A stretch of DNA of 64,000 nt from Nageia nagi (Eukaryota; Plantae; Pinophyta): NCBI GenBank assembly GCA_050084985.1, contig JBITNC010000001.1:100998001-101062000 (forward strand), read 5' to 3'. The notes below the pieces were generated by a model that was not told the origin of the DNA, searched no databases, and saw nothing but the letters and a program-made list of their open reading frames with translations. The first letter of the stretch is position 1. The number at the start of each line of letters is the position of its first letter. Both the position numbers and the translations under genes were made by a program. Shown in pieces: positions 13,471 through 53,765 of the stretch.

Positions 13471-13525
13471 TTGGGTAGCAACACATTGGGTAGCAACACA
13501 TTGGTTAGCAACACATTGGGCAGCA
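13471..13525. repeat. 15-bp tandem repeat x3.7 (TTGGGTAGCAACACA)
   Basis: Directly visible. Confidence 0.9.
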
Positions 13526-13589
13526 TAGATTGCACCAATGATCCCATCATCAGCTATGATTACTGAAACTAAGGATCCATCTTCCCCAA

Positions 13590-25546: not shown

Positions 25547-26169
25547 TCAAAGAAACCTAAATAAAAAAGAGTAATCAATACCAATCGCTTCACTTGAAAA
25601 GAACACATTCATCCAAGCTTGCATCATCCTTTTCAATCTTTAACATAAAAATAGGTATCCGATCATATATCAATAGGTGTGATTATTTCATGTTTCAAAA
25701 TTACCTTTTATTTTGTATGACATATAACAAGATCATCTAATGGGCAAAAATGCAAGGTATTACTAAAATTTTGTATCCTTTATCATTTTCAAATGTGGTC
25801 TTGTGTTCTCTCTCTTAACAACATCCCTAATAAGGGAAAATTGTACACACTAAAATTTGCATTTTAGCTTATTCAAAATGATTTTGTTTAAGGATTTTTT
25901 CCTACTTTGAATAAATCAAAGCACATTTAAATGAATTTATCTAATTTACCATTTTCTTTTATGCACATTGTTTTAAGTGAGTCTATCTAGACGAACTCAA
26001 AAGTAAATTTGTAAATTATTTTTACACATTTTAGTTCTTGAAAGATTCATATGCAATCATCATTATAATTCATCACAAGAAAATAATAATGCAAGATTAT
26101 CTTTCATAATCATAATAATATCATCAAAGTTGTTGAAAGAGCAAAGAACAAACCAAAAAGGGTGTTCAA

Positions 26170-26440
26170 GCTAGAATAATCAACATTCTAGCACTTGAAC
26201 ATTGAATGCCCAATGTTATGGCATCCAAACCCAAAATGCCTAACATTCTAGCATTGCAAGCTTGAACCCTAAACCCAAAATGCTCAACATTCTAGAATCT
26301 ACATTTAGAACACCCAATGTTAAGATAGTCAAACCCAAAATGCCTAACATTTTAGCACCTAAATCCATAATGTCCAAAGTTACGATATTTAAGCTCAAAA
26401 TGCCTAATGTTCTAGGACTACAAATCTACAACATGAAGAC
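26170..26440. repeat. Degenerate 30-bp tandem array (AAACCCAAAATGCCTAACATTCTAGCACCT)
   Basis: Units visible at ~26330, 26360, 26390. Produces the KPKMPNIL pseudo-ORF. Confidence 0.75.
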
Positions 26441-27524
26441 TTTGATCTAAAAGCTCGATAGCTCCTATGACTAAACAAAATTATTTTGAAGTATCTACAT
26501 ATCAATTCTAGTATCATTCCAAGAAAAATTATCTTAAATAATCTTCCAAACTATCATCTTATGATTATCTCCAAAAATCTCCTACTTGAATATAACTAAA
26601 ATTCTTCCCTCAAGAAAACAAGTTATCCACTAGCAAACTTTTAACCCCAACCAAATAAATGCACTCTTAATACATTACAAAATCCTAATTACTAAATCTC
26701 TATATTACATTCAAATATTAATTTACTTTCATTTGTAGATGTAATAAATACTATTTTAATACATTATTCCATTGTTAAGATCTCATTGATAGTCTATGGT
26801 CAACTGTAGATCACACTACAAAATAGCATACCTATTGACATGGCAAGCCCTAGGAACAACGAAACCTTTTAACTTACATCAATTAGTTCCAAATTGTAAT
26901 TTTGTAAATTTTGACACTTATGGGAACTATTTAATTTATTCAAATTTATACCTTTGCATGTTTTGAAAAAAAATAGCCCTTTGAAGACATGTGAAATGAT
27001 AAAACTAACATGGAGACCTTTTGTAATAGCCATTATTGCATTCTTGAAATCACAATTCCATTTTTTTATGTCAAGTTTTTGTATCCTACACATTGTTCAT
27101 GCGCATTAAATTTAGTAACTTCACTTTCATAATCTCAATAGATAGTGATTCTGAACAAGAAACAATGAGATCTTTTTTAAGCAGAAGCATTAAGCCTATG
27201 ACCATAAACTAGTTTGTTGTTGTTCATCTTGGTTGATAGTTTAGACTTAAAAAAAATTTCTTTCACAATTTGAGTGCTTTAGATACAAAAGGATGTTAAA
27301 AGTATCTAGTCTTATTTCTATATTGTTTGTAGCTTTAAGGATGTGATGTGCCTACACAACTCCCCCCCACCTAAATGTTAGCATTTTTGAGGACCCTCAT
27401 ATAACTAAAAAAGCATGACATGAAAATTTTCAAGTCAAATGCATGAGTGTCAAGCAAGAATGAGGATAAAAGTGGTAAAAATTGCATATTTTGATGAAAA
27501 CAAGTCCAAAACCCATTTTTCACC

Positions 27525-29273
27525 TTAGGCGCATGGTTTTGAGTGAGTCGTTTTGTACTCACCAAAAATTATGCATCTAGCCTTGTGTTGCATCTACCAT
27601 GGCTAACTCTGGATTTGTGCACTTAAAATCATGCATTTTCATGTCCTATTAACCCCCCATCATTAAAAGCATAACATTTTCCTCATTAGATATCATTTTA
27701 GGAACATTTTGGTCATTTTCAAAAAGTTTTGACATGTATCGACCTTAGGCGCATGGATTTTGTGTAGTGAAAAAGCACCCTCCTAAATTGGTGCACCCAA
27801 GGGATGGAACATTTTTACACTTAGCATTTTTTTCGAAAAAATAGCTTAAGTGCATGGTTTTTGAGAAGTGCTTTTGCACTCACCGAAAATGGTGTGCCTA
27901 CCCTTCATGAGCCTAAAAATTGGTTGTGTCGAAAATCTAGAGCATTCATTGTGGGATAAACAAGTGTTTCACCATGCATTAGGCCTTCATTTACATCAAT
28001 CAACATGTGACACCTATCCATTTGGAGGCACGGGCTATAAAAGGGGGGTCATGTTCATTTTATATGCATTTTGGGTCAAATGTTTCATGTACACCATCTT
28101 TTACATGTTAAGAGAGAAGGCACTACTTGAAATTGGTGGACCTCACTCCATAAGTTATTTTTGAACCATTTTTCCTATAAATTCACTTGATTTTGCACAA
28201 TTTAAGGCACCATAGAAGTTGTGTGCATGTTTCTTAACGGGTGAAAAAGCACCCATCCAAATTGGTGTGCCAACCTCCTGGATGTCCAAATCTAGGACCA
28301 AGGATTTTTTACTAAGTGTGAAATATTATATCTTGAGCCTAGGCACATGTTTTCTAAGGAGTGCAAAAGCACTCATTGAATTTGATGTGCCCAGATCCTG
28401 AGAGTGTGATTCAAGTAATTCTCTAATTGCTCCTAGACCCCAGGCACAAGGATTTGAAGGAGGGCAAAAGCACATGTTAAAAATGGTGCACCCATGATAA
28501 AAGGATCATTTTTATGAAAGTTTGAAATTGGCCAAGTCTTGAAACATAAGAAGCCTAGGCACATGGATCTAGAGGGATGAAAAAGAACTCATCCAAAAGG
28601 AGCAACCCCATTTCTTGCACATGTAGTGGACCCTACTTTTGACCAATCTCAAGATGATACATAGTAGGACCCAAAATCTATAAATACAAGGTCATCCTTT
28701 GCATTTCATTACTCAAAATCATTTTTTCCCAGACTCCCAAGTCGCAACATTTCCACAATGAAAAAGGATTGCCCAATAACGATGCGCCAAGGAGGAATAA
28801 GGATTTTTGGGATCATTTAACATCATTCTAAGCCATTTTTTTCTGGTAAGATGAGGGTAAGCTTGATCTAGTAAGGCATTTTCTAAAAATTACTTCATTT
28901 TTTTTTATACATCCCTACCCAACTTACCTAGCATGATTTCTACATAGTGCAAAAGGACTCATCCTAAATGGTGCACCTAAGCCTAGAGTGAGAAAGTTTG
29001 GTTAAGTATCAAAATTTTAGGTGCATTTCATCCCCCTTTCCTTCATACATTATAATTGATAAAAATTTAGGGTGCAATTTTTTTGTGTAGCGAAAAGGGA
29101 TTTATCCAAAATGTTGCAACCTAGCATGAAGTAATGACCAAACCATTCTAAATGATAAATTTTGTCCAAAGCAAGGATAAAAATTGATTGAAGTAATGTG
29201 TTCCTTTACCAGGTACCCAAGAGCATAATTTTCTGAGTGTGAAAAGGCACCCTCCCAGATTGGTGTATCCCAA
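27525..29273. repeat. Array of ~10-11 56-bp palindromic units with variable spacers (element A)
   Basis: Units at ~27525, 27745, 27846, 28219, 28339, 28440, 28555, 28925, 29068, 29218. Consensus CTAGGCGCATGG...GAGTGC(AAAA/TTTT)GCACTC...TGGTGCGCCTAG. Confidence 0.8.
28679..28686 (+). promoter_or_regulatory. TATA box for the element A ORF
   Basis: CTATAAATA followed ~25 nt later by pyrimidine-rich TCATT. GTAAG donor-like sites at 28846 and 28857 suggest a 5'UTR intron. Confidence 0.55.
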
Positions 29274-29581
29274 GAAAATTGACCTCAAAATTGGCTAAGT
29301 GTTGGATAGTCAAGAGTGAAGATATCAAGTAGACAAGTGGCACCCATGCATTATCCCAAGCATTTACACTCCATGCATCCTCTATAAAGGGGTTTTTCAC
29401 CATTTTATGCATGACATTTCATCCATCCCAACCTGGACATTTGGTCAACTCCCACTACCATAAGGATACATCCAAGATAGTGCACCTAACCTAGTTTGGC
29501 CCTTTTCAACCATTTTTTACTAGAATTTAAACCTGTTTTCACTCATTTGCCACCATTTCAAGAGAATTTTGTTGATTTAAG

Positions 29582-32500
29582 ATGAGTTCCAGGGTAAATC
29601 CCACCTCATCCAAGAGCAAAAAACTCTAAAAGTAGTTATTCAAGAAGCATGTGATTGAAGATCAAATGGAAAGGCTTCTAGAGACAACCATATAGAATTT
29701 TAAGAAAGAGAGAAACAAGAGCTCCTTGAAGCCAAATTCAAAGGAAGATTCACCTTTGTAAGTGACACAGATTAGGGTAACATGGATCATGTGCACACCA
29801 TTACGTCCACCTCTGATATCAACAAGGAAGATTTACAAGATGAAATTGTGCACACTTGTGGGTTTTTAATGTTGCCATGATAACATTTGTTGTTTCCTTT
29901 CCTGATGTGTGCTATGAAATGGTCAAGCACTATAAATTAGATAAGAGACGTCTCTTGGATACCAAAGGTAATGTGATCATGGACTTCACTTCAGCAGGGA
30001 TTGAAACTAATTTTGGGTGGAGAAGATACAAATATGAATACATTGAAACCCAATCTATTGAGTATCATGATAGTACAACTGAGCCCAGAGACTACAAAAT
30101 AAATTGGTTTTATGATGATTATCAAGGCATTCAAGGTCAAAAATTCGTTAGTGCTTGCAAGGAGGAATTCATCCCCACGGTGTCTAAGTTGATCACTCTT
30201 CTATCTTGGGTCACTGGATAGAAAAATGATACCAAGTAAAAGGAGTTTATTGGCGTCATAGTCATGATTAGCTCTGGGAGGGCTATAAGATGGAGTAGAG
30301 TAATCAGTGATGCTTTGTGCCACCAATTAGCTTATTTGGGCTCATCCAGAAGATTTTACATGAATTCTTACTTTGGTTTATTTACTGTTACATGGTAAAT
30401 TTAGATCCAAATCACATGCTAATGAAAGGCAATTGAGAAAGCAAGGCATCCCAGTGTGGAATGTCTATCCCAAGTGGTGGTATCACAACAGATTCAAGCA
30501 CTTTTACTTGAGGAATGATAAGAGGGAATGTGCTATATATAAGTTGATCAATGGAGAGTCTATAGTAAAGAGAATTTATGATTTAGTTTTCCAGGCCATT
30601 AGTGGGCATGCATATTTTTACCTACAGTATGTCGAACACACTTATATCAGACTATATGGCTCTAAGGAGTAAACTTTTCTTTTGCCCAAGTATGCTAGTG
30701 ACAGGCTAGTCCTCATGGAATTTTCTAGGCAATTGTTATTTTTGAAGGAAATAAGGTGCACAAAGAAGGATGCAATCATCAACCTATCAATTTCTATCAA
30801 CCTATCAAGCATGAGAAAGGAGCTGCAATAATATATCTTCTATAAGGATATCATTGTCAGATACTATGATCCCAGAGGTGTCATGGCCCATTTTTATAAT
30901 ACTGCTTTCCCAAAACCAATAGCATTCAAACTCTTATCTTTGGTAAATATGGAGAGAGAGGAATTTGAAGGATAAGAAGAAAATTGAGGAAATTTGTGCT
31001 CCTTTGAATAAGAACAAGTCTCTCCTCAAGCCTATGAGTAGAAATGTTGGACTACCTATATCCCAAAGGACCAAAAGTGTTAAGGAGAGACCCAAAGAGG
31101 TTCCACTCAAAATCAAGACATCTCCACCTAGCAACAATATACCAGCTTCATTGGTTAAGTTGTCTCCCTTACCTTCTCTTGGGAAGAGACATGAAACCCT
31201 TGGCCAACATGCTACAATGGGCATCACTAAACACAAGGAAGAGGCTAACATAGTGAAAATAAGTCAAGAGGTGGCTGATCTAAGAGATATTGGCTATATT
31301 AATGTCCCTTTGAGCATGTTAGAGCAAGTTTTTGTGCACCCCAAGGGCATTTGTGCTAATGACTCCCCTATCACAAAGACCAATGATGCTCCATAACAAT
31401 CTTCATACCTTCAAGGACACAAAAAGAAGATTCCCCCACTACAACCAAGTTACAATTCTTTCAATTCCTCCTCTTCTTCCTCAGATGAAGAAGATTTTGA
31501 TGAGTTAGGCTCTCATGATGAAGAGAGCCAAGATGAAGAAGGCCATAATGAGGAATATGGTGATGGAAAGAAGAGCTATGATGATGATGTTGAATCCAAT
31601 CCCTAAGATGATGAGTTTTACCTCTCATAGGAACAAAATGTAGTTGTAGGTGCTTTTGCACTAGATGACATGAAGAATGATACTCTCCCAAATGATGATG
31701 TAATTTTTGATGTAGAAAAGATGGATGAGGATGTCCAAGTCATTGGAGTGAAATATGCTAAAGAGGTGGGCACATCTCGAACTCATCCCACAAATCATAG
31801 GAAGAAATCACCCTCATCGTCGCAAAAGACCTGGTCTAAGAGGACCAACAATGAGATCCCCTCAGCCTCGCAGAAAAGTTCTATCATTAGGAGGAGGTGG
31901 TGGAGATGAAGAAAATGAAGGTGAGACAAAATAAGAAAAGAAGAAAAGGAAGCAAGATGTACACCAAGTAAAAGACGTTATCGTCATCTAGAACACTCCC
32001 ACAAAAGGGTTATTAAAAAGGTAAGAGTAGAATGCTAGTGCCAAGGCTCCCCTCTAATCCATCTACTGAACTACTCGAGCTTGACTTGGATGCCTGCTTA
32101 AGAGCTTTAAGCATGAGTACCGATCATGATGAGGATATAGATCCATATTTGAAGTCTAAGGATGAGAAGAGCTCTTTGATGGTGAGAAAGTATGAAGAGT
32201 GAATACTTATATTTCCACTAATAGGAAAGAGATCCTTGTCATCCATTGCTACTCCAAGGTGAAGCAACCAAGAGGACCCAAAGATTGCTTGATTGAAACT
32301 TTCAATATGCCTACTAAGTTAGGATTATCAACCAGAAAGCATATTGTTTCCCAAAATGCATTTAAAGTGGAGTAAAAAGGCTTTAAAGCCAAACATGAAG
32401 TAAAGAGATTGAAGAAGGAACTCACCGCCAATAAAAAAATGCTTAAGGAGTTTGAGGCTATGAGTATGACTCCTGTGGAACTTAGAAGACAGGCTTCATT

Positions 32501-33266
32501 CAATGTAGATTGGGAGGTAATGAAAGAATCCTTAACGAAGGAGATGATGGAAACCATTCAAAAACTAGCTTCTCAAACATATGGGCTCATCGAGGAAGGA
32601 GCTGAGTTGAGAGAGCTTAAGACACAAATATCCACCCTCCTCGAGAAGCTAGATGCTCATCTCCCTACTATTATCAATCTTCAAAGGATGTTTGTTGATA
32701 AGCCTAAGAAACTAGTCTACTGCCATGAATTTATGTACCAACATGACTAACTAAAGCATGCTTTTGACAAATGTCAAGTGGTGCTTAAAGCCATGGTGCC
32801 CTTGAAGGACATAAAAGAACAAATGACCTAGTATACTAATCAATTGAAGTTTTAAGGGGGAAATGGTGTACGAAAGAAGGAATCAAGCTTGGCCAAGACA
32901 CACAACCTAATCAAGGAGAATCTCAAGGTTGAAAACCTCAATCTTCTGAAGGTGGGGAAGCCTATCTATCATTAGAGATAGATGGTCATTCAAAGATTCC
33001 AAATGTAGGCTACATCTCAACAGATAAAGGGATTCTATAAGGAGAATAGTATCATTGTAAGCATGCTCTCTAGAGGTGTGAGGGAGGTCTTCGATTTCCT
33101 AAAAGAAACTATGGAATCTTACAGACTCACTAACGAGGAGAAAATTCTATGGGCCCCGAATCAAATCAGGCATAGATTTGATTTGCTTGCAGATTTTGTT
33201 TGCAATAGTCTTTTCAATTTGAATGCATATTGTTCATGGTTCTCAGATTTCATTTATTTGGTCTAA
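29582..33266 (+). pseudogene. Element A long ORF (~1200 codons, decayed): plant-transposon-like N-terminal domain, acidic/basic linker, coiled-coil C-terminus
   Basis: Consecutive + strand ORF fragments 29856-33266 are collinear with the element B protein (DFT..GI..F.W; RFYM.SYLV; TYIR.YGS; LP.YASD...MEF.R.L; YYDP.GV; YCH.F.YQ.D.L..A..KCQ). Confidence 0.8.
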
Positions 33267-34942
33267 CCAATGCAGGGATGAGTTTTTGCTCCCATTGGCT
33301 CAAATGTCAAACTTTATTCCGTATCTAATTTTATTTTGCATTGGTTAGAGATATATTAAACATTTTGCGGCTATGACATTTATGTTTTGTTAGCTTTTAA
33401 ATGTATCTTGCATAGATAGATGTGATGTGATTTTATTTGCATAGATATATCTATTGTGTGAGCATACCATATTAGATTTTATGCCTTTAGGGCAAAGCTG
33501 CATTTATTGCAGCTACTTTTGTGATCCCATACATATCCCACTTCAATCATTTAGAAGGGGATTTTTACTATTGAAAGAACGGAATGCTCAATTATGTTGT
33601 TGAAAGTATTTTGCAAAGATGATTTCTTTCTATAATAGTGCTTTGAAGAATGATATGAATAGTTCATTTCCTAAGATTATACATGTTATCTTGTAAGATT
33701 TTCTTACCAATTTGAATAATTTTTCTTGCTTAAGTGCATTCTCTTTGAAAACTTTTAGGGGAAGATAGTTGAATATCTTGTGAAGTAGTCTAAATTATTC
33801 ATTGCATAATTTGCACATAAGTATATGTATTATGGGGCAAATGTTTATCTCTATGTCATTCAGTTAGAATATGCATTCACAATGTTGGTCATTTCCCATC
33901 ATCTTCACTTCCATTGAGTAGTCCATCATAGACTGAACAACTTCATGCTCTCGTCTAGTAGCAACTTGAGCTTTGGTATTTGCTGCTAGGCTTGAAAAGT
34001 GAATACAAAATTTCTTAAGGAATTTGGGGGTGAACTATCAAGACACTGCATCATTGGTGAACATTTCATATGCTTATTTCTCATTCCATGCATGTATCCT
34101 CACATTTGTGATCTTTCTTTGTTTTCGTTCACATTTGTGATCTTTACTTGCTTTTAAGCACATTACTCGTGATTTAAGTCAGTCATGGAATCTCAACTAT
34201 ATAAAGGTTGACAGTATGCATCTCTTGCGATTGTGCATGAACCATATTCCATATGAGTGCTTAGGATGTAAAGTCCTTTCAGACAGAAACATGTAACGTT
34301 GTTTCCTCCAAATTGATTGGATGTTTTTGAAGAAAAGAAAAACATACCAACAAGATGTACAGGAGAATGAGTACGGCCTGTAATGTTAAAATCTTCTTTT
34401 TAGACCCTCGGAGAAAAGGTAAAGGACATGTTTGTTTCGACAATAGTACCAATGCTTACATGAAAAACATTTTCCAAAACAATTGGTCTTGGAACAACCA
34501 GGCATAATTTGATACACACTTCAAACATAATTTAAAGTTTAAACCACCTGCTATTGACCGCAAATTTGACCAAATTACAACTACTGTAACATGAGTATTT
34601 ATTAACTATTTTATCTTTAAGAAGGGGACACATAAGCTGAGAATAAATTTAATGAAAGAAATGGATTACTCTAGATTTCTTTCTGTTCAAAAAAGTATTT
34701 CATGATTGTAACAGAAAATGGCCACACCATTTACTTATATTAGTTTACAAGCTCATGACTACAGTACAGAAAGATACAATACAAAAAGGAAAGCCAGAAA
34801 CCCAAGGCCAAGGAAAGGTTAAATTTTCCATTCTCTCTCTCCATTTTTCTTTTTCTTTTTCTTCCCTGTTTAGACAATTTGATTTATATGGCCTCATTTG
34901 TTTCACCATATTCTTGTCTCCAACTAATTCTTCTTTCATTTT

Positions 34943-35039
34943 CTACTTCTGTTTTGAAGAAAGCAGCTGATCAATTTCTCCCTTCTCATTATACATGTCA
35001 ACAATCTTCTTTGCATAAGAGGGAATATGCTTTTCTGCC
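34943..35039 (-). CDS. HCAR: HCAR last coding exon
   Basis: AG acceptor at 35040-35041; (R)AEKHIPSYAKKIVDMYNEKGEIDQLLSSKQK*. Confidence 0.93.
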
Positions 35040-35270
35040 CTGCAACCACATAATACACAATTTGTAGAAATATGTTACACTCGAATACACTTTCTTGTAG
35101 TATATATACAAGGATTTACTGTTGAAGGCAAGGTGGAGGAGGTCACCATCAATTTACTACCAAGTTTTTTACAAAGGGGAGTAGCCAAACATGCTTACTA
35201 GACTAGAGGCACATTGACTGCTGTAAATATTAACATAATTGACAAAAATATAGCATCTGGCTGGCCTAAC

Positions 35271-35365
35271 CTTTGTTTTCCCCAATTACGGCATACGTGT
35301 AAGTAATTACGTATAGTGTGATAGTCAAGGGAATAGCGCCCAAACTCCAAACCCTTGGGTCCAAT
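35271..35365 (-). CDS. HCAR: HCAR exon
   Basis: IGPKGLEFGRYSLDYHTIRNYLHVCRNWGKQ(R); AG/GT borders, phase consistent. Confidence 0.95.
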
Positions 35366-35673
35366 CTGCATTAAACAAGAATAAAATAGATTACATACTT
35401 AACACAGTACTATTTGAAAAGGATTCTTGGCACACAGAGTACTCCATGTCTATTGTTCAGATGTTCTCCATCCTTGCCCAGAGGGTTGCACTATTATAGT
35501 GTTTGGCTGGATTTGCATCGTTTACATGGTGCACTTTGTGAGGTATCTTATTCCATCTAATATAATTGATGTTTTCCATTGCAGAAGACAAAAGTTGCGA
35601 ATGACAGTTAATTATATTCATTCAAAAGAACAAGTAAAATTATCTCGAAAGCACCAAACTAAAGAATACTCAC

Positions 35674-35738
35674 CAAGTTTAGAAGAAAGGCAATGATGTT
35701 TCCAACAAATCTGGGAGCTGGTTGGGAATTTCCTTTAC
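35674..35738 (-). CDS. HCAR: HCAR exon
   Basis: (G)KGNSQPAPRFVGNIIAFLLNL; AG/GT borders. Confidence 0.95.
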
Positions 35739-36086
35739 CTGTATAAAGATTAGCATAAGTTTCTAACTGTGCACCATATTAGCGGTTTATCACAGAAGTT
35801 GACATGGACACTAAAAATAAAAATAAAAAATATCAATTAAACAGAACTCATGATAGTCATCATGAATCTAATAACATGCATGATAGCCATTTAGATGCAT
35901 TAGGAATATGCTTGGCATGGAGATGTGGGAATGTGCTACATAATATTTATCTGATACTACGTAGCCAATTGGAAAGCTTCATCTAAAGAACTGGAGACTT
36001 TTTCCAGCACAAGATTCAGAGGTCGTTCTATGTGTACGCTCTCTGGCCATGTTGCCAGTCAATTGAGGACAAAGGGCAAGTTATAC

Positions 36087-36144
36087 CAGTTTTCGCCCTG
36101 TCGTCGGCTTTAACTGTCTCCATAACAAATGAATGCCGCTTTCC
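36087..36144 (-). CDS. HCAR: HCAR exon
   Basis: GKRHSFVMETVKADDRAKT(G); AG/GT borders. Confidence 0.93.
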
Positions 36145-36305
36145 CTGTAGAAAGCAAATCTACCGTTGTGAATATATAATCTTTGTATATACATTGAATA
36201 CCTGACTGCCTGAAATTGCATCCCAGACGTGTAGAAAAGGATACTAATGCAAACATTAATTTCATGTTCACAGAGAAACTAACTTCGAGAAATTGCGTGA
36301 CATAC

Positions 36306-36375
36306 AGTGCTGACAGTTGGAGCGATTTCCAAGAGTTCACGCACTAAATTAAACATTTGCCTTCCCCGTTTATTC
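36306..36375 (-). CDS. HCAR: HCAR exon
   Basis: (R)NKRGRQMFNLVRELLEIAPTVST; AG/GT borders. Confidence 0.92.
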
Positions 36376-36660
36376 CTGCCATCAAGAAAAACAACATGAA
36401 GCTCAAATTATCCTCTAAAAGTATTTTATTCATAGGTTTATATCCTCTATACAAATAGTTGAACACAGAATTAGAAGTACAACTTGAACTAAATACTTCA
36501 AACATTTATTTCATATCTTGAACTTTCTTAAGCATCTTTCTCCACTGTTGATTCCTAGCATTGAGATTAGCTCGGCGTGAATATAACGAGTTCATATTCT
36601 ATGGCTACATCAACTTTCTAAAAACGTGGAAAAAAAAATTATAAATAAGCAAATACTTGC

Positions 36661-36740
36661 CGAATGGTAATGTACTGAGGATGTTGAGTCATGCTTATTC
36701 CTGGGTATTTCGGCACTCCCATGTAACCTACAACCAAATC
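36661..36740 (-). CDS. HCAR: HCAR exon (GC donor)
   Basis: DLVVGYMGVPKYPGISMTQHPQYITI(R); acceptor TTACAG, donor GCAAGT. The six exons join in one stop-free frame matching the C-terminus of 7-hydroxymethyl chlorophyll a reductase. Confidence 0.93.
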
Positions 36741-39700
36741 CTGTAAAATTCGTAAAAATCTAATATCTTGCATAAATATTAGAATAAGTAATGTTTATAC
36801 AATCTCGGTTTCAAATATAAAACAAGCAATAAAGAAGCATATTGCAAGTCTCTTGCATTTTTGAGGAAAGCATTCTGCATGATCCATACTAGCTACGCAA
36901 AAAAGTGTTTTACATGGCTATCACCAAAACATCAACTGTGGAATGGAATGCTTCTGAACTGTTAAATAAAATATTTTTTCTATGGAAAAATCATTTGTGA
37001 ATCATTCAACATATTTGAGCTCAAATTTCTAATTAAGGAATAGTATTAGGATATGATTGACTCAAAGTGGAGCTTTGAAATCAGTGGATCATCCTTCACA
37101 CTTGTTACACTGCAGCCTGTTTGGTGTGGGTTAGTGGCATCCTTGCTAACCTGGTACGCTATTATCATGCTTGCTTCTACGCACTACTCGTTGCAGTGAT
37201 GTCCTCAATCTAATTTCTTTCTTTCAAACTTATCATAAAAAATTTTGCATCTAGGCTTTAGGCAGCAAACCAGTTGCTAAATTATTTTTGTTGTGTTCAA
37301 ACTTCAATAATATTTGGCATTTCATTCGGATCAGAATTGATTTTCTTATGGAAAACAAGGTGCAAAGCTACCTTTGAAGATCACGTTACGCAGTTTACGT
37401 TGACAACAAGAAAGGTTTCAAAAAGGATATTACCTACCTGGTCAAATCACATTTTGCTCAGATGCAGAAAGATATTAAGACCCCCCAATTGGTGCCAAAT
37501 ATCAGGTACTTTCTTTCCTTTCATTCAATTCTATAGACTTGTCATGCTAATCATATGTTCAGATTTTGTAATATTCTTGCCAATTTGAAGTAATATAAGA
37601 TGCATTTTTTCAAAAAAGAGAAAAATAAAATTGCCTTGTACTGGTATACAGTTTCTAAAGGTAGAAGGTGAAACTATCAATGTAAAATCGAAAGTATTTT
37701 TTGAGAAGAAAATTGGCATGTAAGATGGTATTCCTCTGTTTTGCTATTATCTTTTTATACATTTGTATTTATTTGTTTGGGCTGTTGATGATGATGTACG
37801 CTTTAGATTTAAATTGCAAAAACTAATATCATGTCAAAACAAGAATGTTTCTCTTCTTTTAGAGCTAAGAAGAAAAATGTAAGTGTGAAACATGTTGCAC
37901 TGACCTTTTCCATGGCCTTACATTTCTTCTGCCCATCTCCCTCCTCATAGATTTTTGCTAATGAATCCTGGAAATATTGGGGTATTTGGCAGGTGAACAC
38001 ACAGAAAAATCAGCAGACTCTTGAAGAATTAACTGTGGAAATAATATTCCAGTTTGCTTGCAAGCTGAATGTCCATCCTGGGGAAGCCTAAATTTTTTGG
38101 ACCCTGCTTAGTCCAGATCTTCTTCTGAAGGTACAGCAGATTGTGTACATGCAAACACAAGTTCACCAATTTGTTTCTGGTTTTTATATTGAATCATCTA
38201 CTGGTACAGCTGATGATGGAATAACTCTGGATAATATTGAAGATGATGGATATTTATATTGCTTCTTCAACTGATAAGAAGCATTCCTTAATTGCTTAAA
38301 GTTTTCAAACACTTCTGATATTACTCTGAAAGCCATGAAGCATGACTCCATACGTAAGTAATGCTTGCTGTAATAAACTCTTAATATTCTTATGCTGGAA
38401 TTGGAGTCGGGCATTCAACAAGTTGATAGAAGAAGTGGACCATTGCACACAAAGTATGTAGAATTGAATAAACAAGATAAAACCAGATTTATTTGGAGCA
38501 ATAGCACTGCTAAAACCACTTATCAAATACTTTGTATTCTACACAACTTATTCACTTCTATTTTTGTATTTACTTTTTTGTTTTTTTAACTTGAAAAATA
38601 CACAACCAAAATAAAGATAAATCTAGCAATTCCAACATCCTCCCTTAATCCTTATTTATAGTAGGATGAGATACAAGAAATCGCAGAGTTTATTTAGAAG
38701 AGAGATGAGGAAGTTGACATTACTACAAAGATCCTCTCTTAATTTCAACTTCCATGAGACACACTGTCACAAAAAGTAGTCAATTGCACCAACAGCAACG
38801 GTTTGGTGCATATTAACCATTTATTTTTCAGTTTTGCAATAATTCAACTCTACCTCAGCACCTTCTATTCGAACAAAGTGATAATAGGATTCTTTGCTAA
38901 TTTGATGGATTTTTGTTTATCACAAAAATGATTGTTATATGCCTTTGTGGTAGGTTCACCTTAGTAAGCAACACAGCTTCTTGAAATCCCTTTGATGAAC
39001 CAATATACTTGTTTTCTACAGTTGAAAATGTTGTAGACTGCATCCTGCTAATCCATGTAATTGGTAGAGATCCTATGTGAAAGACAGCCCAAAGTAGATC
39101 TTCTACGAACAACATCACCTGCACAATTTGAGTCTATATCCTACAAGTGTAGACTCTCAATCAAACTTGTATTCAATTCCAAAATTATGTCTACCTCTTA
39201 TATATCTCAAAATAATTGTCAATATCTTCCAATGGTCTTCACATACATTTGCTAATGTAATGTTCCAAAATTTGTCCAACATTGTAAATATTTTCTTTTG
39301 TGTTTTGTATGTGTTTGAGCATTATTTAAGGTGTTTTGTCATATTTTGTAGTTAAAATGGAAGTTATATGGATTAATAAGTGTGTTTTGACAAGTTTAAT
39401 ATTAGTATATGGGTTAGGGGAGTTATTTAAGTATTTGGGAAGAGTTTTGAAATAAAAAAAAGCATTATTTAATGCTTTTAGATTGGTATACGTTTTTGAA
39501 ATATGTTTGAGTGTGGACAAAGTCTCTTCCTTCATTGTGTGGATCCCGATATCACTTAGGTGATTTCAACATAAGATTATATCACAACACTTAGATCATA
39601 AGTGAATGAGATCTAATCTTAGCCATCCATAGTCAAATCTAAGGCTGAGATCTATCCTCACATTAGGGTGTGAATATAGAAATGCTTTAGGGTTTCATTC

Positions 39701-40100
39701 AGACGATGTGATTTTGGAATTGAGAATTGGAGAATACTGAGTATTTTGGGGCTATTGGAAACTTCTGGTAGTGTCTCTAGAGAGATTTGGGGTTCCCATT
39801 GGAGGGAGCAATTTCATTGGAGGCTAGACCAGCTAGCTATCTACCCATTGGATCTAACAAATTTATTTCAGAATTTGTGATTTGTGCTTAAATTGTGAAG
39901 AGCAATTGGAGCTTAAGTGCAAATCTGCCATTGAGGGCAAGATAGAGGGCATTTTGATAAGGGTTTCAATCTGATCTCAACATCAAAGTGAGACGTTAGC
40001 TCTAGGAGGAGTGTTTGGAAGCTTTTGGAGGCATTTTGTGCCCTAACCACCATTCTAAAATGTGGCGTTTAGCATCATAAATATTGGGTTGGCAATTTTG

Positions 40101-42342
40101 TGTAATGTACCAAAATGCAAAAACAAACACCCAAAACAGATTTCTATGCAAAACAACATATCTGAAATATTTTTGGATTTTTTTTTTATTAATTTTTCTC
40201 TCACATGCAAAACCCTAACTGAAATTACAATAATTGGAAATGACATATCTTACATAATACAAACTGAAAATCACATCCAAATGATGAAACCAACCGTACA
40301 AACTCTAGATTTGCAACTTTGATCCCACAAGATGACTCCCAATTACTCCCTCCTATGACATCTGGCTTCCTGGTTGTAGATCTGCATCTCAAATCTGCAA
40401 AATTGGGCTTTTAGGGCTAACATCTTGTGACGTCCTTTTTGTGTTCCGAACAACTTTAGTGGATTCTTGAGAATCCCATTGTAATATAGGTTTATGTTAT
40501 GTTATTCTTCCATATTGTAACTCGGGATAGGAGACTATTGGGTCATTGACCCCCATTGTGAGCCCCAAGTGGGACGCCTTCCTCCTGTGGAATAGCATAG
40601 GAGATTTATTAGTGTAGGCTCATTATGCATGCGTCAAGCCAAGAGTGGCCCCACGTCCACCCTAGGAGACCTAGCAACACCTTGAGGCCCCACGTCAGCC
40701 TTCCTGTGACCTCCGTGCATGCATGGCACTTCCGAGGCACACGCTAGCTGTTTGAGCATAAGGAGGACCCACTTGGTATGTTTGGACACTTGAACACCCA
40801 CGTTGGGCATTATGGGCCCCTTAGTTGGTCAACGTTGGAAATAAAGGAGAATTGGTGACTTTGAGGCAGGAACACAACGTGAGATTATAAATAGATCTTG
40901 GAGGCTCATTTAAGGACAGCTATTAATGATTACTTCTTTTATTTGACTTCCGGACCGCAAGTCTTAGCCAGGGATGAGCAATTCTACCTAGACGGAGCAT
41001 CTAAAGGATGATTTGGCTCAGGGATCCTAATTGTCTTGACTTGGTGTAGCATCAAGTCCATCCATTGGCATCCGAGGGTTCCATTCCTTCCATTCAATTG
41101 GATTTCCAATGTTTGAGAGCCCCTTCGTTGGGAAGGAGTCGAGGGCTAAGGGAGTGAATTTGTCCCATTTTTCTGAGTTGCCTTTGTGATTGATTGTGTA
41201 TATCCGGCCGTTTTGAAGAGGCCACAATTGCCATTTGGCTAATGTAATTGTCTCCATTGAATAAACATATCATTGAGGATTCCTATCCATTCTTGTGTTA
41301 TGAATGATCATTGCATGCATGCATTGGTATGGGGTGAATGCGTTATTTGTATTGCTCTTATTAATGATTGATTAGTAAGGAGGGCTGACGTCAAGCTTGT
41401 GGAGTTCTTGGGAGCCCTAGAGTCTCAACATTGGATCTTGGAAGATGTGTTGAGGGTTTTGGAAACCCTAGCCAGGTTTAAATTGATGTATTTGGCACGA
41501 GTGTTCATTTGGAACATTACACATCCCTCCGTCTAGGGTTATTTTGACCCTCCAATATGAAAATAGCCCTCTCCTAGGGCTAACGTCCCTCTCCAAGGAC
41601 TTCTTTCAGCTAAATCAATGCTCAAAATACATCAATCTTGCCCTCCAATTGGTTGATATGATCTTTGTTCCTGTTATGCTTTGCCCTCCAGTAGGCAGAA
41701 TTGCACTTATCCTCATTGTTGCTCCAAGTTTATGCTCAAATCACAAACCCTGAAATGAATATGTCAGATATGGATGGGTAGAAAGCTAGTTGGCCTAGCC
41801 TCCACTGGAATAAATCCAATGGGAACCTCGAAAACTCAAAGAGATACTTCCAACTATCTCCAAGAGCCCAAGAATTCTTCGAAATCCTTCCAATTCAATA
41901 TCTAACAACAACAAAAATGAAGTGTTAGATTTCTTTTATTCTCTTACCCTAATGCCAAGATAAATCCCAAGCTTAGATCTAATCATGAAGGGTTGAGATT
42001 AGATCTCGCATACACAAGATCTAAGGGCTACGATATAATCTTGCATTGAGGTCACTTAAACATATTACAAAAACGTCTACCCAACTAAAAGCATAAATTA
42101 ATGGCCTTTTCTAACCCAAAACACTCCCAAATACTTAAATAATTCTCCTAACCCATATACTAAGATTTGACTTGCCAAAACACATCTATTAACCCTTATA
42201 ACCCCCATTTTAACCACAAAATATGATAAAATACCCTATATGATGCCCAAAGGCTAGACAACCCTTGCCAAGAGACCCACAAATACATAATAAACACAAA
42301 AGAAATTATTTTACAATGCTAGAAATAATTGGGGACATTACA
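40101..42342 (-). mobile_element. Solo LTR Y nested in B
   Basis: TGTAATGT...ACATTACA 8-bp TIR; TSD TTTTG/TTTTA; reverse-complement relative of X. Confidence 0.88.
40426..41521 (+). mobile_element. Solo LTR Z (1096 bp) nested in Y
   Basis: TGTGAC...ATTACA; TSD CATCT/CATCC; TATAAATA ~40887; CCACGT motifs. Confidence 0.9.
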
Positions 42343-42819
42343 TTTTAGGTGTTTTTGGAGAGTTTTGAGGTGTCCAGGAGCTTATTTTCTATCTTAGCAG
42401 CCACACGTCCAGCCTAGGGGAAGAGAAATTTCAGATCTAGGGTTTTTGGGACAGACATTGACATCTCAACCTTTGAGAAGACATGTTTTGACAAGCTGGA
42501 GATGTTTTGAGGTGCTTTTGTGTTTAAGATACCTTTTGTTGTGCCCACACAACACACCCCAAGATGCAACATTTTGGGAACCCTACTGTTTTTGAATGCA
42601 ATGGATGACAGTACCTAGAGGTGACTATACAACGGCTAGAGAAAAGAGTCAAAGCGGCCAAGTGATGAAGCAGTGCACACAAATACCCATAGAGGCACCA
42701 AGTCAGTTCAGTGTGTCCAAGGGCCATTCATGGTTCGGTTTCAAGCAACATCAAGTAGGATGCAGTTTTGGATCACGGCAGCGACTAGGAAAGAAGTTTT
42801 TCACCAAGCGACCAACAAA

Positions 42820-43480
42820 GCGTAAAAAGGCGCATTTTCACAACATTTTAGAGCAAGACTGGCAGAGTTGATGAAAAAGAACATTTTTTCAAGAAATGAG
42901 CTCATAGGTGCCTAGCATCACAAAAGGCATTTTTTTGCAAAATTGGAGCACAAAGGTACCTAAGTAGCAAAAATGAGCATTTTTGTCACTTTTGGGTCCG
43001 GGTGCCTTGAAAATGACAAGGATGACAAAAATGGACATTTTTGTCAAAGTTGACCTTGGAAAGCTAGAAAAGGGCAAGGTAGAAAAGTGCGTTTTGGTCA
43101 CTTTTGGGCCCGAAAATGCTCAATATGGTAAAAAAGGTGCATTTTGCACGATTTGAGTCTAGAAAGCTCAGAAATGACTAAAAGTAGTGAGTTGAGCCAT
43201 AATGGCCAGAAATGCTCAAAAATGTCAGAAATGCCAGAAAAGGTCATTTTTTCACACTAAGGGCCTGGAAATGCCGGAAATGGGCAGAATTGAATACTTT
43301 GAGCCCGGAAAGGTAGAAATGGTCGTTTTTTCACCATTTGAGTTCGAAAATCATTGAAAATGCAAAGTTTGAGCTTTGACGGTGTCAGAAAACGCGTTTT
43401 GATCGAGTTTGAGCTCGGAAACGCCGAGAGTGATCGAAAATGCATAGATTGAATCTAGAATGTTCGAAAATGCAAGTTTG
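42820..43480. repeat. Degenerate ~45-55-bp repeats with AAAA-N4-5-CATTTT motif and phased A/T tracts
   Basis: Motif at ~42825, 42873, 42920, 42969, 43027, 43083, 43131. Confidence 0.6.
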
Positions 43481-43489
43481 AGTAGCCTT

Positions 43490-44975
43490 AGCCCCAGGCA
43501 CATTTTCCCAAGGTGTTGAAGATCCAAGTGAGAAAAATGGTGCATGTTTCTTATAGATAACTACAAATGATATCAAAATTCGAGTCTAAGAGTGTATTCG
43601 GACAAAAAAGGTGAATTCTATCACAGTTTAGGCTCAAAATTTTCAATTTTGACCAAGTCTATGGCACTCTGAAGCTACGCGCAGTTTTTCAAGCCTATTG
43701 GAAATCCATAGAGATGCATTTTGGTGCCTAGATAGTAAATAAAAAGTGGAAATGCATCAAAAATAAAATCTAAATGCATGAATGAGTGGAAAAAATGGTT
43801 TTAAGCCACATTAGGTCTCAAAATTTTTGGTTTTGAGCAAGTAAAGACCCCCAATTTGCTAGGCGCAAGTTTTTAGATGTTTCCAAAACCATTGAAGTGA
43901 AAAATGGCACCTAGGTTGACAAGATAGGATCATTTTTTACCAAAAATCAAGTTTAAGTGCTTGGGAACAAGGAAAACGTGATTGCAAACACATTTAGGTC
44001 TCAAAATTTTCGATTTTGAGCACATTTGGCCACCCTAAAGGCTACGCACAAGTTTTGAGAGCTATGGAAATCCAATGAGGTGAAAAATGGTGCCTAGGAT
44101 CAAGGAATTTGATAAATTGTGGTCAAAATTCAAGTTTTAGGGGTCTACAAGGTGTAAAATGTGATTTCTAGCACATTTAAGTCTTGAAAAATTCGAAAAT
44201 GAGCAAGTTTTGACCCTCCAAATGCTAAGCGCAAGTTTGCAAATGTTTCAAATTCCATAGGGATGAAAAATGGCGCCTAGCTTGGAGGGATAAGTGAAAA
44301 ATGCACTAAAATTTGATCCCAAGGTGTCAATTGCATGGAAAACCCCATTTGGAGCACATTTGTAACTACAAAATTCGAATTTTGAGCAATGGAAAGGCAC
44401 CTAAAGGCTAGGCACAGGTTTTCATGCCATTGGAAATCCAATGGAGTGAAATCTAGCACCTAAGATGGAAATATTTTGCAAATTTTGCTCAAAACTCAAG
44501 TGTGAAGGGTCCATTGGGTCAAAAACATCATTCTAAACACATTTAAACTTGCAAACTTCCAAATTTGAGCAAGGGAAGTGGCCCAAAATCCTAGGCGCAG
44601 GTTTGCTAATTTTTCTAAAACCAATAAAGTGAAAATCAGCGCCTAGCATGAAGAGTGAAAATTTTGCAAACAAATCAAATTTTTTTCACATGGTTGCATG
44701 GAAAAGGGCATTCTAAGCATGTTTAAACTTACAAATTTTCAAAATTGAGCACTAGAAATGCCCCAAAAAGTCAAGTGCAGGTTTCCAAGCCATTGGAGAA
44801 CCCAAAAATGAAAATTGGTGCCTAGATGCAAGGAGAAAGCCCCAAAAGCCATCAAAATTCAATTTTGGGCATATAGATGGGTGAAGGAAGTGATTTGAAT
44901 CACATTTAAACTTTGAATTTTTCCATTTTGACCCAAGGAAGTGCCTCAAAAAGCCAGGCGCAGGTTTGCAATCCT
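43490..44975. repeat. 183-bp tandem array (8 full units + 1 partial), each with CTAGGCGC-N40-GCGCCTAG
   Basis: Left arms at 43494, 43675, 43859, 44042, 44225, 44408, 44591, 44771, 44954; alternating subtypes. Confidence 0.9.
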
Positions 44976-45083
44976 ATGAAGTGTTTAAAGGCTCCAAAAA
45001 CTTAAAAACTATGCAAAATGCACCCCTAGAGCATTTTTTAGGTCACAAACCCACTAAGAAGCATGCAAAAGGCACAAAAAAAC

Positions 45084-45089
45084 TATAAA
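45084..45089 (+). promoter_or_regulatory. TATA box for the element B ORF
   Basis: CTATAAA then CTCATTTG ~20 nt later. Branch-like CTAAC (45810) and CAG acceptor (45831-45833) just before ATG 45843. Confidence 0.5.
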
Positions 45090-45842
45090 CACCCCCCTAA
45101 GCCTCTCATTTGCTCCACAAACACTCTCCTTGAACCTCCATGCACCCATTTTTGAGTAAAATCCTCACAAACCCTTACAAAATTGCTCAAAAACTTCAAA
45201 ATTGCTCACAAGATCCAAAATAAGCCAAAACCTTGTCAAAATTTTTCAAGGATCTTAGAATTCCATTCTCTATCCACCCATTAGGTCAAATCCATTTTTT
45301 AAAAAATTTCAAAATTTCAAACCCCCTTAACTTTTGGCCATTTTCAAACTTTTTGAAAAAAGGTGAAAAAACACAAAAAAACACTTTTTTCAAGGCTAAA
45401 AACTCCAAAATTTTGAATGATCCAAACTTTGAAGTGAATACCATAGTGATAGATCCCATACAAGAGAGTAGCCTCCATCATTCACTTCTCCCGAACAAAG
45501 CTTGAAAACCCACTTTGCATCCCCATATTTCCAAGCTTTGAAGCTGCAAAAACTTGTCAAAAAACGAATACATGGGCTAAAAAAACAACGAGCTAATTCA
45601 AACCCCGAAAACTCAAAATTTTTCTCAGAGACTTGGCCACAAGCCTCCTAGATTTATTAGCCAACATCCCATGTACTTGTTTCCCACTTTCGAAGAACTT
45701 CAAAATTCTCGAAAATCCACACTTGAAATCTAAAAAAACTAAAAATAAGCCAAAAATTTGACTCTGTTTTTTTGCTCCAAAATCACTCCGGAGATACCCA
45801 ATACCACTCCTAACACCTTGTTGTACTCCACAGGTTTGAATC

Positions 45843-48800
45843 ATGAGCATTGATAAGAAAAACAAAGAGCTCCAGATGGAGAAGCTCATGAAGACTAGCC
45901 TGATCACCCTAGAAAAACGAGGCAAGGCTCTCTTCCCTACAGCTATGCTAGTAGATGGCCTTGGACAAATCAGGGACATAGATTGGGCAAACACTGACCC
46001 CGTTAAGTCATTAGAGAAGATGGCCAAGATCCCACACGAACGACTATTCAATGATACACTTGCTCAATGCAGGATCGTTGAAGCTTCTTTGATCCCTTTT
46101 ACCGCTCCATTCCCAGAACTATGCCTCGAGGTAGCAAGATATTGCGACACAAAGGAGAGAGTCCTCAACAATGAAGGCACAAAGATACTAGATTTCACAA
46201 TGGAAGGAATAGATAGCGCATTTGCATGGAGTAACGAAGGCATCATATTCTCCATGAAAGAGTTCGTCAGATTCTATAACAGCTTGACCAAGCTGGGGAA
46301 TTTGATAAGAGACTAGCTAGTTGACGAGTGCAAAGATTAAAAGGCAAAGGCCTTAAGTCAACCCAAAAGGATAGACTTCTATCCTACAATCTCAACCATT
46401 ATCAGTATGTTGTGCAGAATCATGGACAAGAAAATGATCAAGATTCAGAAAGGAGTTTGTGGGTTTCATACATCATATCAACAGAGGCAAAGGGATCAGA
46501 TGGAGTAAGGTGATCAGCAACTGCTTAACTCAACAATTGTTTAGAATTGTAGAAACAAAGAGATTCTACATGAGCTCTTACTTAGTATTCCTGTTCTACA
46601 TGGCAAGAACAGAAAATCCACCATAGCAGATACCAAGTACCTCTTTGACCCAGGAATGCCAATATCGTGGACTTACCCTAGATTCATGTTGGAAAACTAG
46701 TGGGACGAATTCAAAATGATGAATGAAGGATTTGAGTGCTATATATATATAGAGGTAAAGGGGACCGTCAATATGACCAAGATATCACAAGCAGCAATCC
46801 AAGTTCTTCAAGGACATGCAGATTTTTATCTTGAAGAAACAAATGCCACATATATCAGGGTTTACGGGTCAATTGAGCCACCTTACAAACTTCCTCGTTA
46901 TGCAAGTGATTGGTTCATCTTGATGGAATTTTGCAGACACTTGTCGTACTTACATGAAAAAGTTTGGTGCAAAAAAGGTGGCACCACGTGCAAATTACCT
47001 ATCCACATAGGGGAGTACGAATGCACGTCATGGCATCAAGTCAAGACAATGAAGATGGAGTTGGCATATTACGGCTTCACAGTAGAACATGCAGTAGAGT
47101 ACTATGATCCTGAAGGTGTAATCGATGCATTCTACAAAAAACCTGGCAAACCGATTACCCTCACAAGTCCCTAGGAAAACTCGAAAGATACAGAAATATA
47201 GATGACATTGAGCAAATCAGCAAGATAAACAGGGACTTGGCAGCAGAAGAGAAGCTCAAGCAGACCGTGACCAAGAAGAAGAAGAAAAGAGGTCTGCAAG
47301 AGGAGAATGCAATAGCCAAGATACATCCTTTGATAATCCTTAAAAAGAATCCCCTGATTCCGTGTGAACCGCCACCAATTTCACCTTCAGTGAGATTGAC
47401 ACTGGGGTAGTTTGGTCAATATGCCACACTCATTGTTCAACAAAGGAAAACTATTGATCAGACCATACAGGGATTATTGCAAGAGATAAGAAGCACTAAA
47501 GAGACTGGAAGCACTTCGCATCCATACAAACGCTTAAAAAAGTAGGTGGAAGTCCCTCCCAAATGTCCATCCCAAGATGGACAATTATATTATCTTGGCC
47601 CTAGTTCTCTTACTTCTCCTCCTTCTAGTGACAGCGAGGATGAATATGACATTGACGAAGGAGACCTCTTGAGAGAACCCTTAGAAGATGGCCAGACATC
47701 TGAAATACCTTACATCTCACGCAATGAATCAGATTCATCAGTCGAAGAGATACAGACCATAAGTCCTCTTACCATGGCAGAACTCGCTCAAGCAACAAAA
47801 CCTACACCTACACGAGCTTCCACACCTCAACAACCAAAGAAGACACCTCCACCTTAGAGAAAACCTACATCACTTGCTTCAAGAAGGACCCCATCATCCA
47901 AGGCAATAGCTTCCTCATCAAGAGGGGACGAAGGAAATGAAGAGAATGAAGGTGAAGATGAAGACCAGAGGAAGAAAAAGAGAGAGGAAGAACATCAAGG
48001 GAATCCAAAGAGACAAGTGACTATAGTTGCCAATCCTGGGCTGAGTTACAATTTCGACATGGCGGTGCTCTTAAAAAACTTAAGAGCATAGCATCCATCC
48101 AAATCCCTTGCCGACCTTGAAACCGATCAAGAATCAGAGAATGAACTTGAGCATGTAGCCACTTACATCTCGATGAAGGGTAATTCCATTGTCACAGATA
48201 CTATTGCTGCAAGAAGGAAAAAGAATGTTGATGGAGAATTTGCATTAGTGGTGGAAACACGAGAAGAGCCATGTAAAGCAATCGGAACTTTGGGCAGGCA
48301 ACATGCAATAGTTTCTAATGTTGCAGCGCTGACAGAGGAGAACACATCACAGAAGGTAAATTGGTTGAAAAGAGGAAGTTGAAAGTTGATATCCAAGCTG
48401 CTAACCTAACAGTTGAAGACATCAAGAAGTAGATCTCGTTGAATACGGGGATTCAAGCGGTCAAACAAGAGTGGATTAATCAGACCAAAGAGGCTATTCA
48501 AGAGTTATTCCTAAGAATAACTAATTTCTTTATTGAAGACAATGGATCGTTCGTCACTCAAGATAGGATCCGTGAACTGATTGCTAGTTGAGGCAATAGT
48601 TATCAGGTGATGCATGAGCTAAGAAGGAAAGCTGTCGGCATGCCAATAATACCGGAGTACTGTCATCCATTCTTTTACCAATATGATTGGCTATTCTATG
48701 CTATTTCAAAATGTCAGGATTTCATCCAAGTCCAAACAAATTTCAAAGCGGACATGAAGAAACAGCTAGCAAAATACCAATTTGATCTAAGGTTGATCGA

Positions 48801-49107
48801 GGAAGATGGACGCAGCAGGGACTATTCCACAATAATAAATGAGGTCCAGCTGATGATCAACACTTACCTCGAAACTGAAGATATTAATGTCCTCAAATCT
48901 AGCAAACGGCTCAAATATGGTAGCAATATGGCAGTATGGTGTAGCGAAATGAAGAAGACTTCAAAGACCATCACCACATATCTGTTGGCAAATAAAGGGA
49001 TAATGGAGATCCTCAACACCGGAGTCAAGAACAAAGAAATCTTCATTGGCACAAACTTCAAGGCCACCATCGCATCACATGTGCAAACCACAAATCAGCC
49101 ATCGTAA
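45843..49107 (+). pseudogene. Element B long ORF (~1090 codons, several stops and frameshifts)
   Basis: Fragments 45843-46316, 46716-47174, 47546-47857, 48173-48382, 48607-49107 are collinear with the element A ORF. Confidence 0.85.
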
Positions 49108-49308
49108 TTTTTGTCATTTTCGAAAATTTTGTAAATCAGTCAACCAGGAAAGTTGAGCACCAAAACTCGATTAACTTTGCTCACATGATCAGTCAGCCTG
49201 GTAAGTAGATCACCAAAAGTCAGCAGACTTAGTTGTAGCAGGCAACTATGTAATATTTTAATATATTTTTATAGAATTAGGGCAACACTTGGGAAACCCT
49301 AGAAATTC

Positions 49309-49316
49309 TATAAATA
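49309..49316 (+). promoter_or_regulatory. Second TATA box (LTR U3-type promoter) of element B
   Basis: AAACCCTAG...CTATAAATAG, preceded by a ~35-bp direct repeat (49134/49187) and followed by an R/U5-like 1-kb tail ending in CA. Confidence 0.6.
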
Positions 49317-53509: not shown

Positions 53510-53765
53510 ACTCTTAGACCCACGTGGCACCTTGGACTCCAACATTGGCATGCATGGCAAGTTGGACACCCAAGTTGGCATGCATAGCACGTTGGACACC
53601 CACATTGGCAACCATGGCACCTTGGACTCCCACATTGGCAACCATGGCACCTTGGACTCCCACATTGGCATTTATGACCTCTAGGTAACCACGTTGGGCA
53701 TGCTTGACCCCTAGGCACCCATGTTGGAGATCTTGGGCCTCCAAGAGGCTAACGTTGAGATTAGG
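53510..53765. repeat. 30-bp tandem array in the LTR H promoter region
   Basis: ACCATGGCACCTTGGACTCCCACATTGGCA is repeated exactly at 53611 and 53641 (first 30 nt), with degenerate copies on both sides. Confidence 0.9.

Follow-up and report, generated by a model that had tools for sequence, protein, structure and literature searches.

Two decayed elements in a stretch of Nageia nagi DNA each combine an array of 56-bp palindromic units with an open reading frame (ORF) whose product is predicted to share the fold of VANC21, an anti-silencing protein. The stretch, hereafter the window, comprises 64,000 nucleotides of GenBank assembly GCA_050084985.1 (contig JBITNC010000001.1, positions 100,998,001 to 101,062,000 of the forward strand). 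The elements, termed A and B (Table 1), have their parts in the same order: array, TATA-like box, ORF and a tail of 1.1-1.3 kb. We propose, at roughly even odds, that the protein would bind the palindromes before its own promoter, keeping the element unsilenced and transcribed. The copies of A and B in the window are themselves dead relics.

Palindromic units in elements A and B

A sequence-only reading of the window had listed ten units with an arm-to-arm span of 56 nt, and every one of them was recovered at its coordinates. The exact motif was present in one of the ten only (44591-44646), and the window holds two exact left arms and two exact right arms. As that reading had anticipated, the spacing peaked at 40: with a deamination-tolerant arm model, A and B each had 5 arm pairs at this spacer and L001, an independent B-family copy described below, had 7, against means of 0.34-0.55 at other spacings. 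Five pairs at any spacing were reached in none of 100 shuffles of A and none of 100 shuffles of B. In the 49 kb of the window outside A and B, no peak at spacer 40 was seen (2 pairs at 40, mean 2.3).

The ten units of A share one orientation, are confined to 1.8 kb and lie at irregular spacings of 101-373 bp. In B, the spacers within units run 41, 40, 40, 40, 40, 40 and 39. The arms of A are much more decayed than those of B, and five of the ten right arms in A carry C in place of the motif T. A chance match was excluded as the source of the array by the shuffles and by the flat remainder of the window. A by-product of one tandem repeat would fit the spacers of B but fails for those of A, and independent insertions of a tiny element were excluded by the common orientation and confinement of the A units.

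Viral contigs contained the exact motif at 11 loci, with flat spacers (38 three times, 39 once, 40 three times, 41 once and 42 three times), at most one pair at each locus and no family ORF; we therefore regard these hits as chance background. One contig of the viral collection (L010) has, at 1505-4308, many short tandem repeats containing CTAGGCGC, with neither a family ORF nor 40-bp pairs.

The unit had been described as two arms around a free spacer. Instead, it is an imperfect palindrome across all 56 bp. Watson-Crick symmetry of the interior about the arm dyad was 0.53 in A, 0.53 in B and 0.48 in L001, compared with 0.19-0.42 on shifted axes, and in 18 units 67.7% of cells paired on the dyad, compared with 31-43% with slid partners. 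Column counts omit the gapped units B 43675, B 44771 and L001 456. Unit 1553 of L001, whose interior is shifted by one base, was kept in the spacing, symmetry and wobble tallies and omitted from alignment A5, as were the three most decayed units of A. Symmetric patches occupy positions 1-8, 12-16 and 21-26, with roughly one turn of the helix between them. The first 8 interior bases are partly common to the A and B families (identity 0.54, versus about 0.3 elsewhere). The inner patch differs between the families on both sides, at pairs 16/41, 21/36, 22/35 and 23/34; such two-sided, family-specific changes are expected if a symmetric binder changes specificity. The motif is not a clean one, given the C-for-T arms of A and mismatches at about one third of the interior pairs.

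Identity among the ten A units was 0.54-0.71 within the 56 bp and 0.33 and 0.26 immediately outside, and the spacers between units were mostly unrelated. Because similarity ends at the edges and the spacers are unrelated, the 56-bp cassette, not a larger repeat, is what was kept in A. The same 56-bp span is kept between the A and B families despite otherwise non-aligning DNA and a protein identity of 25-40%.

Independent copies and TATA-like boxes

A metagenome scan yielded three confirmed B-family loci (L001, L002 and L003) among 216 pattern hits. L001 is 80% identical to B and carries eight paired units, seven at spacer 40 and one at 41. Its arms are close to the proposed motif and retain 13 of 14 arm CpGs. 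Across sequencing runs, most differences of the window copy of B from its family are A in place of G or T in place of C. This bias and the intact CpGs of L001 support decay by methyl-cytosine deamination. The earlier attribution of arm variants to CpG deamination is supported to this extent, and it leaves the C for T in five A right arms unexplained. L002 does not extend to the array region; it consists of the right end of B inserted in reverse into another B copy. In L003, the equivalents of window positions 42851 and 44995 are joined (910-1663).

Array, TATA-like box and ORF follow one another in the same layout in A, B and L001. Four CTATAAA words were found in 2.4 kb of A, against 0.45 expected, and each of the three A unit clusters is followed by such a TATA-like word. 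In L001, the TATA-like box lies at the place matching that of B, 132 bp after the last left arm and 757 bp before the ATG. Downstream of the ORF, B has a second box that A lacks at the corresponding position; judged by its consensus, this box is a candidate promoter of B's own transcript.

Ends and nature of the elements

A and B are separate insertions, distantly related and decayed, both with TG...CA termini. The flanks of A (GGATG/AGATG) form a 5-bp target duplication matching at 4 of 5 positions, and those of B (CCTTT/CCTTC) form one with a single mismatch. The termini of A and B align with each other over the first ~50 bp (z 8.8) and the last ~20 bp (z 7.0), as did 0 of 500 shuffles. In all four sequencing runs, contigs representing the empty site of B joined 42530 to 50377, skipping 7,846 bases and sharing 5 letters. 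Moreover, L003 and L002 cease matching at the proposed ends of B. The B family is high-copy, with 4,928-16,510 contigs placed per sequencing run; no RNA data set was listed among the runs containing it, an absence that carries no information on expression. In run X1, summed contig depth rose to ~20,000 at window positions 50264-50311, near the right end of B, versus <1,600 just downstream. This stretch occurs once in the window, and its depth suggests a motif common to many families.

Neither A nor B contains direct terminal repeats, long inverted terminal repeats, gag or pol, or a stop-free stretch of >99 codons outside the ORF. Rfam families and tRNAs gave no match. Because of the TG...CA ends and the 5-bp target duplications, the simplest reading is that A and B are likely giant solo long terminal repeats (LTRs) of two diverged gymnosperm retrotransposon families. 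The assignment to a retrotransposon in the sequence-only reading is thus likely on the evidence of the ends, although none of the three B-family loci is a full-length paired element. Counting against solo LTRs, the analysis revealed neither a primer-binding site nor a polypurine tract, and it brought up no second LTR.

Since neither a paired element nor a primer site was seen, an LTR-less class remains an alternative: A and B would then be whole units moved by integrase or transposase in trans. This concerns the type of element and is separate from the question of function; we give it an appreciable chance, though below even. Both window copies lack terminal repeats, and their lengths of 7.0-7.8 kb exceed the 1.9-6.5 kb reported for Ogre LTRs (PMC6431247). 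Contigs running past the right end of B enter unlike flanks (22, 9, 5 and 4 contigs; agreement 0.40-0.59) and yield no common consensus for a primer site, but the consensus counts contigs, and one collapsed primer-site contig would be outvoted. TG...CA ends with 5-bp target duplications, on the other hand, fit plant LTR elements, 93.4% of which have a 5-bp duplication in a survey that limited LTRs to 6 kb (PMC6317226), and solo LTRs outnumber intact elements in Taxus and Ginkgo (PMC9364684).

The encoded protein and its predicted fold

A and B each contain a broken ORF of ~1,100 codons. The two are homologous (identity 24-52% N-terminally and 25% C-terminally), with DNA that barely aligns. Uninterrupted natural homologues include P0001 (758 aa, 76% identical to B) and P0003 (838 aa). 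Over the folded domain, ORF A shares 36-41% identity with P0003; its identity to P0007, P0026 and P0040 is 53-64%. The family comprises 186 representatives at E <= 0.001; three C-terminal-only hits were omitted from alignment A1. The ORF has been conserved over the long term. Taxus chinensis was named on two of the 22 clusters looked up, which supports a gymnosperm origin of the protein family, in line with the earlier suggestion.

Pfam gave no family match for the protein in window frames, P0001, P0002, 149 family members, many of which are fragments. This includes PF10536 (plant mobile domain, PMD), Transposase_32, TRP28 (PF04195) and DUF1985; the first two had been named as candidates in the sequence-only reading. 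A profile search of PDB sequences returned nothing below E 0.44, a 'near' profile search added no members, and viral contigs contained no relatives of the ORF. Among 2,543 candidates, no relatives of 1,769-5,000 residues were found, which is weak evidence against a gag-pol fusion.

The protein of ORF B is predicted to consist of a VANC/PMD-like domain (approximately the first 450 codons), a long helix, an acidic disordered linker and a helical C-terminal part. Two natural homologues that are 23-26% identical, P0001 and P0020, were modelled with AlphaFold. In the P0001 model, the predicted local distance difference test score (pLDDT) was ~80-98 for residues 41-250 and mostly >80 up to residue 490, with the long helix and disorder following the domain of ~450 residues. 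The P0020 model had a mean pLDDT of 91. Against 48,161 solved chains, DNA-bound VANC21 ranked first for both models (P0001: Z 7.1, root-mean-square deviation (rmsd) 4.7 Å, 240 aligned residues; P0020: Z 7.7, rmsd 4.7 Å, 239 aligned residues). For P0001 the rows below VANC21 were helices of ~46 residues. For P0020 the next hit had Z 2.9, leaving VANC21 as the sole chain with Z >= 5. A second VANC21 crystal gave Z 8.1, and all matches had an rmsd of 4.4-4.7 Å over 234-240 residues (PDB 9LNK/9LNJ). Some 130 residues more (304-430) are predicted to form a second part. Three points lend the match credence: it spans most of the solved chain, its score is far above those of the remaining rows, and the sequence-only reading had already guessed a VANC-like factor, a guess that the models favour. 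The family protein is thus predicted to have the VANC21/PMD fold.

Proposed function and alternatives

On the proposed reading, each palindrome would be bound by two or more copies of the protein in a symmetric arrangement, with contacts to the outer arms, which contain CpG, and to the symmetric patches ~14 and ~24 bp in from either end. A single domain would not span 56 bp, so that this reading would require several copies, bridging by a coiled coil or bending of the DNA at the T and A tracts. As with VANC and MAIL proteins, binding may counter Polycomb marks or the methylation of DNA, and could thereby shield the adjacent promoter and feed back on expression of the gene itself.

Several points weigh against this proposal. 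Regarding the fold, Foldseek searches of the PDB and of viral models gave no match at E <= 0.001 (in one run VANC21 was second, at E 1.8); Z values of 7-8 are moderate, in the tool's typical range for models without a clear match and may reflect a common arrangement; identity to VANC21 is 5-9%; and the two models share one family alignment and are not fully independent. A common fold, moreover, shows no function. The site of 56 bp is far longer than one domain of 300 residues would cover, and known VANC sites are 8-9 bp and non-palindromic (PMC5735166). The co-occurrence of array and ORF was seen in three copies of two families, and the array is not kept in every copy, L003 being a B copy without it. 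The compensated pairs of the inner patch amount to one event per family. Finally, MAIN and MAIL1 were first described as silencing factors (PMC5418596).

Alternatively, the array may be a cis-region of the Sirevirus type, used by host transcription factors or as a source of hairpins or small RNAs, with the VANC-fold protein acting elsewhere; we consider this rather unlikely. Sirevirus LTRs carry several CpG-containing palindromes upstream of the TATA box, with the arms more conserved than the centre and no element-encoded binder named in that account (PMC4728375). Relative to the TATA-like boxes the array is likewise upstream, and when 12 units were folded as RNA, 8 outdid their shuffles (z below -2.8). 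However, the adjacent protein has a single structural match, and this is to a factor known to bind motif arrays in its own element. The described Sirevirus palindromes measure 17 bp and belong to angiosperm Ty1/copia LTRs, with no gene within the LTR mentioned there (PMC4728375), and a single host factor would hardly account for a fixed span of 56 bp whose inner symmetry is specific to each family.

An RNA or single-stranded DNA hairpin (TAR-like, or a packaging or export signal), perhaps bound by the element's protein, would account for the on-dyad pairing and for its two-sided changes between families. We regard it as improbable: there was no consistent wobble bias (G-U 39 versus A-C 21 in the interior, 10 versus 22 in the arms), about a third of interior pairs are other mismatches, and the arrays of B and L001 lie upstream of the TATA-like box, hence outside that transcript. 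In addition, Rfam gave no match and the fold match is a double-stranded DNA binder.

A protein that binds the array and represses or organises (self-limiting control, nucleosome placement or looping) has as slim a chance: symmetric T and A tracts are phased ~10 bp apart and the 183-bp period of B resembles the nucleosome repeat length, but A has no such period and the closest solved structure is an anti-silencing factor, although the PMD proteins MAIN and MAIL1 do act in silencing, as noted above.

Comparison with known systems

In predicted fold and layout the module resembles the VANDAL/VANC system of Arabidopsis Mutator-like DNA transposons, yet neither the profile nor the type of element places it in the VANC family. 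VANC proteins attach to short motifs that have accumulated through tandem repetition in the elements encoding them, and they strip methylation (PMC5735166). Both systems have a fold of ~240 residues, which for our family is predicted, with long helical and disordered regions next to it, and tandem arrays of a motif, here a candidate one, within the element's own non-coding DNA, as in A, B and L001. Unlike VANDAL/VANC, our family matches neither DUF1985 nor another Pfam model, its identity to VANC21 is 5-9%, and A and B have no transposase and carry 5-bp target duplications and TG...CA ends. The family is gymnosperm, whereas VANC, structurally related to the PMD protein MAIN, has been termed dicot-specific (PMC13547354), and the candidate site of the family is a 56-bp palindrome rather than a motif of 8-9 bp.

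Through the published VANC-PMD homology, the family would belong to the same structural superfamily as the PMD proteins (PMD-A of Ty3/Ogre, MAIN, MAIL1 and MAIL2). PMD-A proteins are retrotransposon-encoded (bioRxiv 2024.09.27.615353; PMC5418596), and MAIL2 sits at a palindromic motif in promoters and counteracts Polycomb silencing (bioRxiv 2024.09.27.615353). In contrast to PMD proteins, the 149 family members do not match PF10536, and one LTR-like unit encloses both the gene and its candidate target; the literature searched named no target site for PMD-A. Retand/Tat and Ogre elements also have extra ORFs next to repeat arrays, of unknown function and with a proposed regulatory role (PMC11963269). 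Their ORFs and arrays are internal and their repeats family-specific, whereas here both lie inside a TG...CA unit with a cassette common to two families, and TRP28 is unmatched. An internal antisense Retand/Tat region between pol and the 3' LTR was excluded, as a target duplication of its own delimits the unit, which has no pol inside.

We tentatively suggest, with the odds against it, that gymnosperm LTR retrotransposons may carry a complete anti-silencing circuit, a VANC/PMD-fold protein with its 56-bp palindromic targets, within an LTR of 7-8 kb. Such a circuit would be doubled at each transposition, could leave solo LTRs acting in trans and would be missed by surveys that limit LTRs to 6 kb. 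If so, VANC-type anti-silencing would be seed-plant-wide and retrotransposon-borne rather than a eudicot Mutator invention. Sequence-specific anti-silencing would then reach beyond the DNA transposons of eudicots to retrotransposons in the giant genomes of gymnosperms, with a bearing on the host or transposon origin of the VANC/PMD fold. Full-text literature searches, which missed the VANC21 structure paper, Sasaki et al. 2022 and supplements, returned no published report of such a module, and a meeting report (PMC12859917) added nothing on gymnosperms. Published accounts describe the extra ORFs of plant LTR retrotransposons, retrotransposon PMDs among them, as being of unknown function (PMC11963269, PMC6317226, PMC5418596). 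Here, a family nameless in Pfam is paired with a precise candidate target common to two diverged families, so that cross-family controls are built in.

Other features of the window

Table 1. Coordinates of elements A and B, their parts and other features of the window
Feature	Position	Strand	Description
Element A	27344..34352	+	7,009 bp, TGATG...CAACA, likely solo LTR
A cluster 1	27525..27901	+	three 56-bp palindromic units (27525, 27745, 27846)
TATA-like CTATAAA	28035..28041	+	after A cluster 1; consensus match only
A cluster 2	28219..28610	+	four units (28219, 28339, 28440, 28555)
TATA-like CTATAAA	28678..28684	+	after A cluster 2; consensus match only
A cluster 3	28925..29272	+	three strongly decayed units (28925, 29068, 29217)
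TATA-like CTATAAA	29382..29388	+	after A cluster 3, ~200 bp before ORF A
ORF A	29582..33260	+	stops and frameshifts; ends approximate
Element B	42537..50377	+	7,841 bp, TGTTG...CAACA, likely solo LTR
B array	43675..44961	+	183-bp tandem repeat, seven paired 56-bp units, final left half-site (44954)
TATA-like CTATAAA	45083..45089	+	129 bp after last B left arm, 760 bp before ATG
ORF B	45843..49107	+	broken by stops and frameshifts
TATA-like CTATAAA	49308..49314	+	second in B, after ORF; consensus match only
Copia element	8100-13230		gag and integrase hits, two terminal repeats 83% alike
Degenerate 44/60-bp repeat	26168-26417		just outside element A
Pfam RVT_2	50737-51054	-	right copia-like piece; left piece judged by eye
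30-bp tandem repeat	53495-53734		in another repeat family
hAT-like transposase remnants	57435-59302 and 63069-63377	-	DUF659, E 8e-19; second piece by eye

The surroundings of B form a nest (38640-52000) with pieces of copia-like reverse transcriptase on the minus strand on both sides. Within it, LTR-like pieces at 39257-40100 and 40479-42342 stand in inverted orientation, and B is inserted in a further high-copy repeat. The repeat-poor stretch between A and the copia nest (34353-38600) may, on the impression gained from reading it, contain host gene exons.

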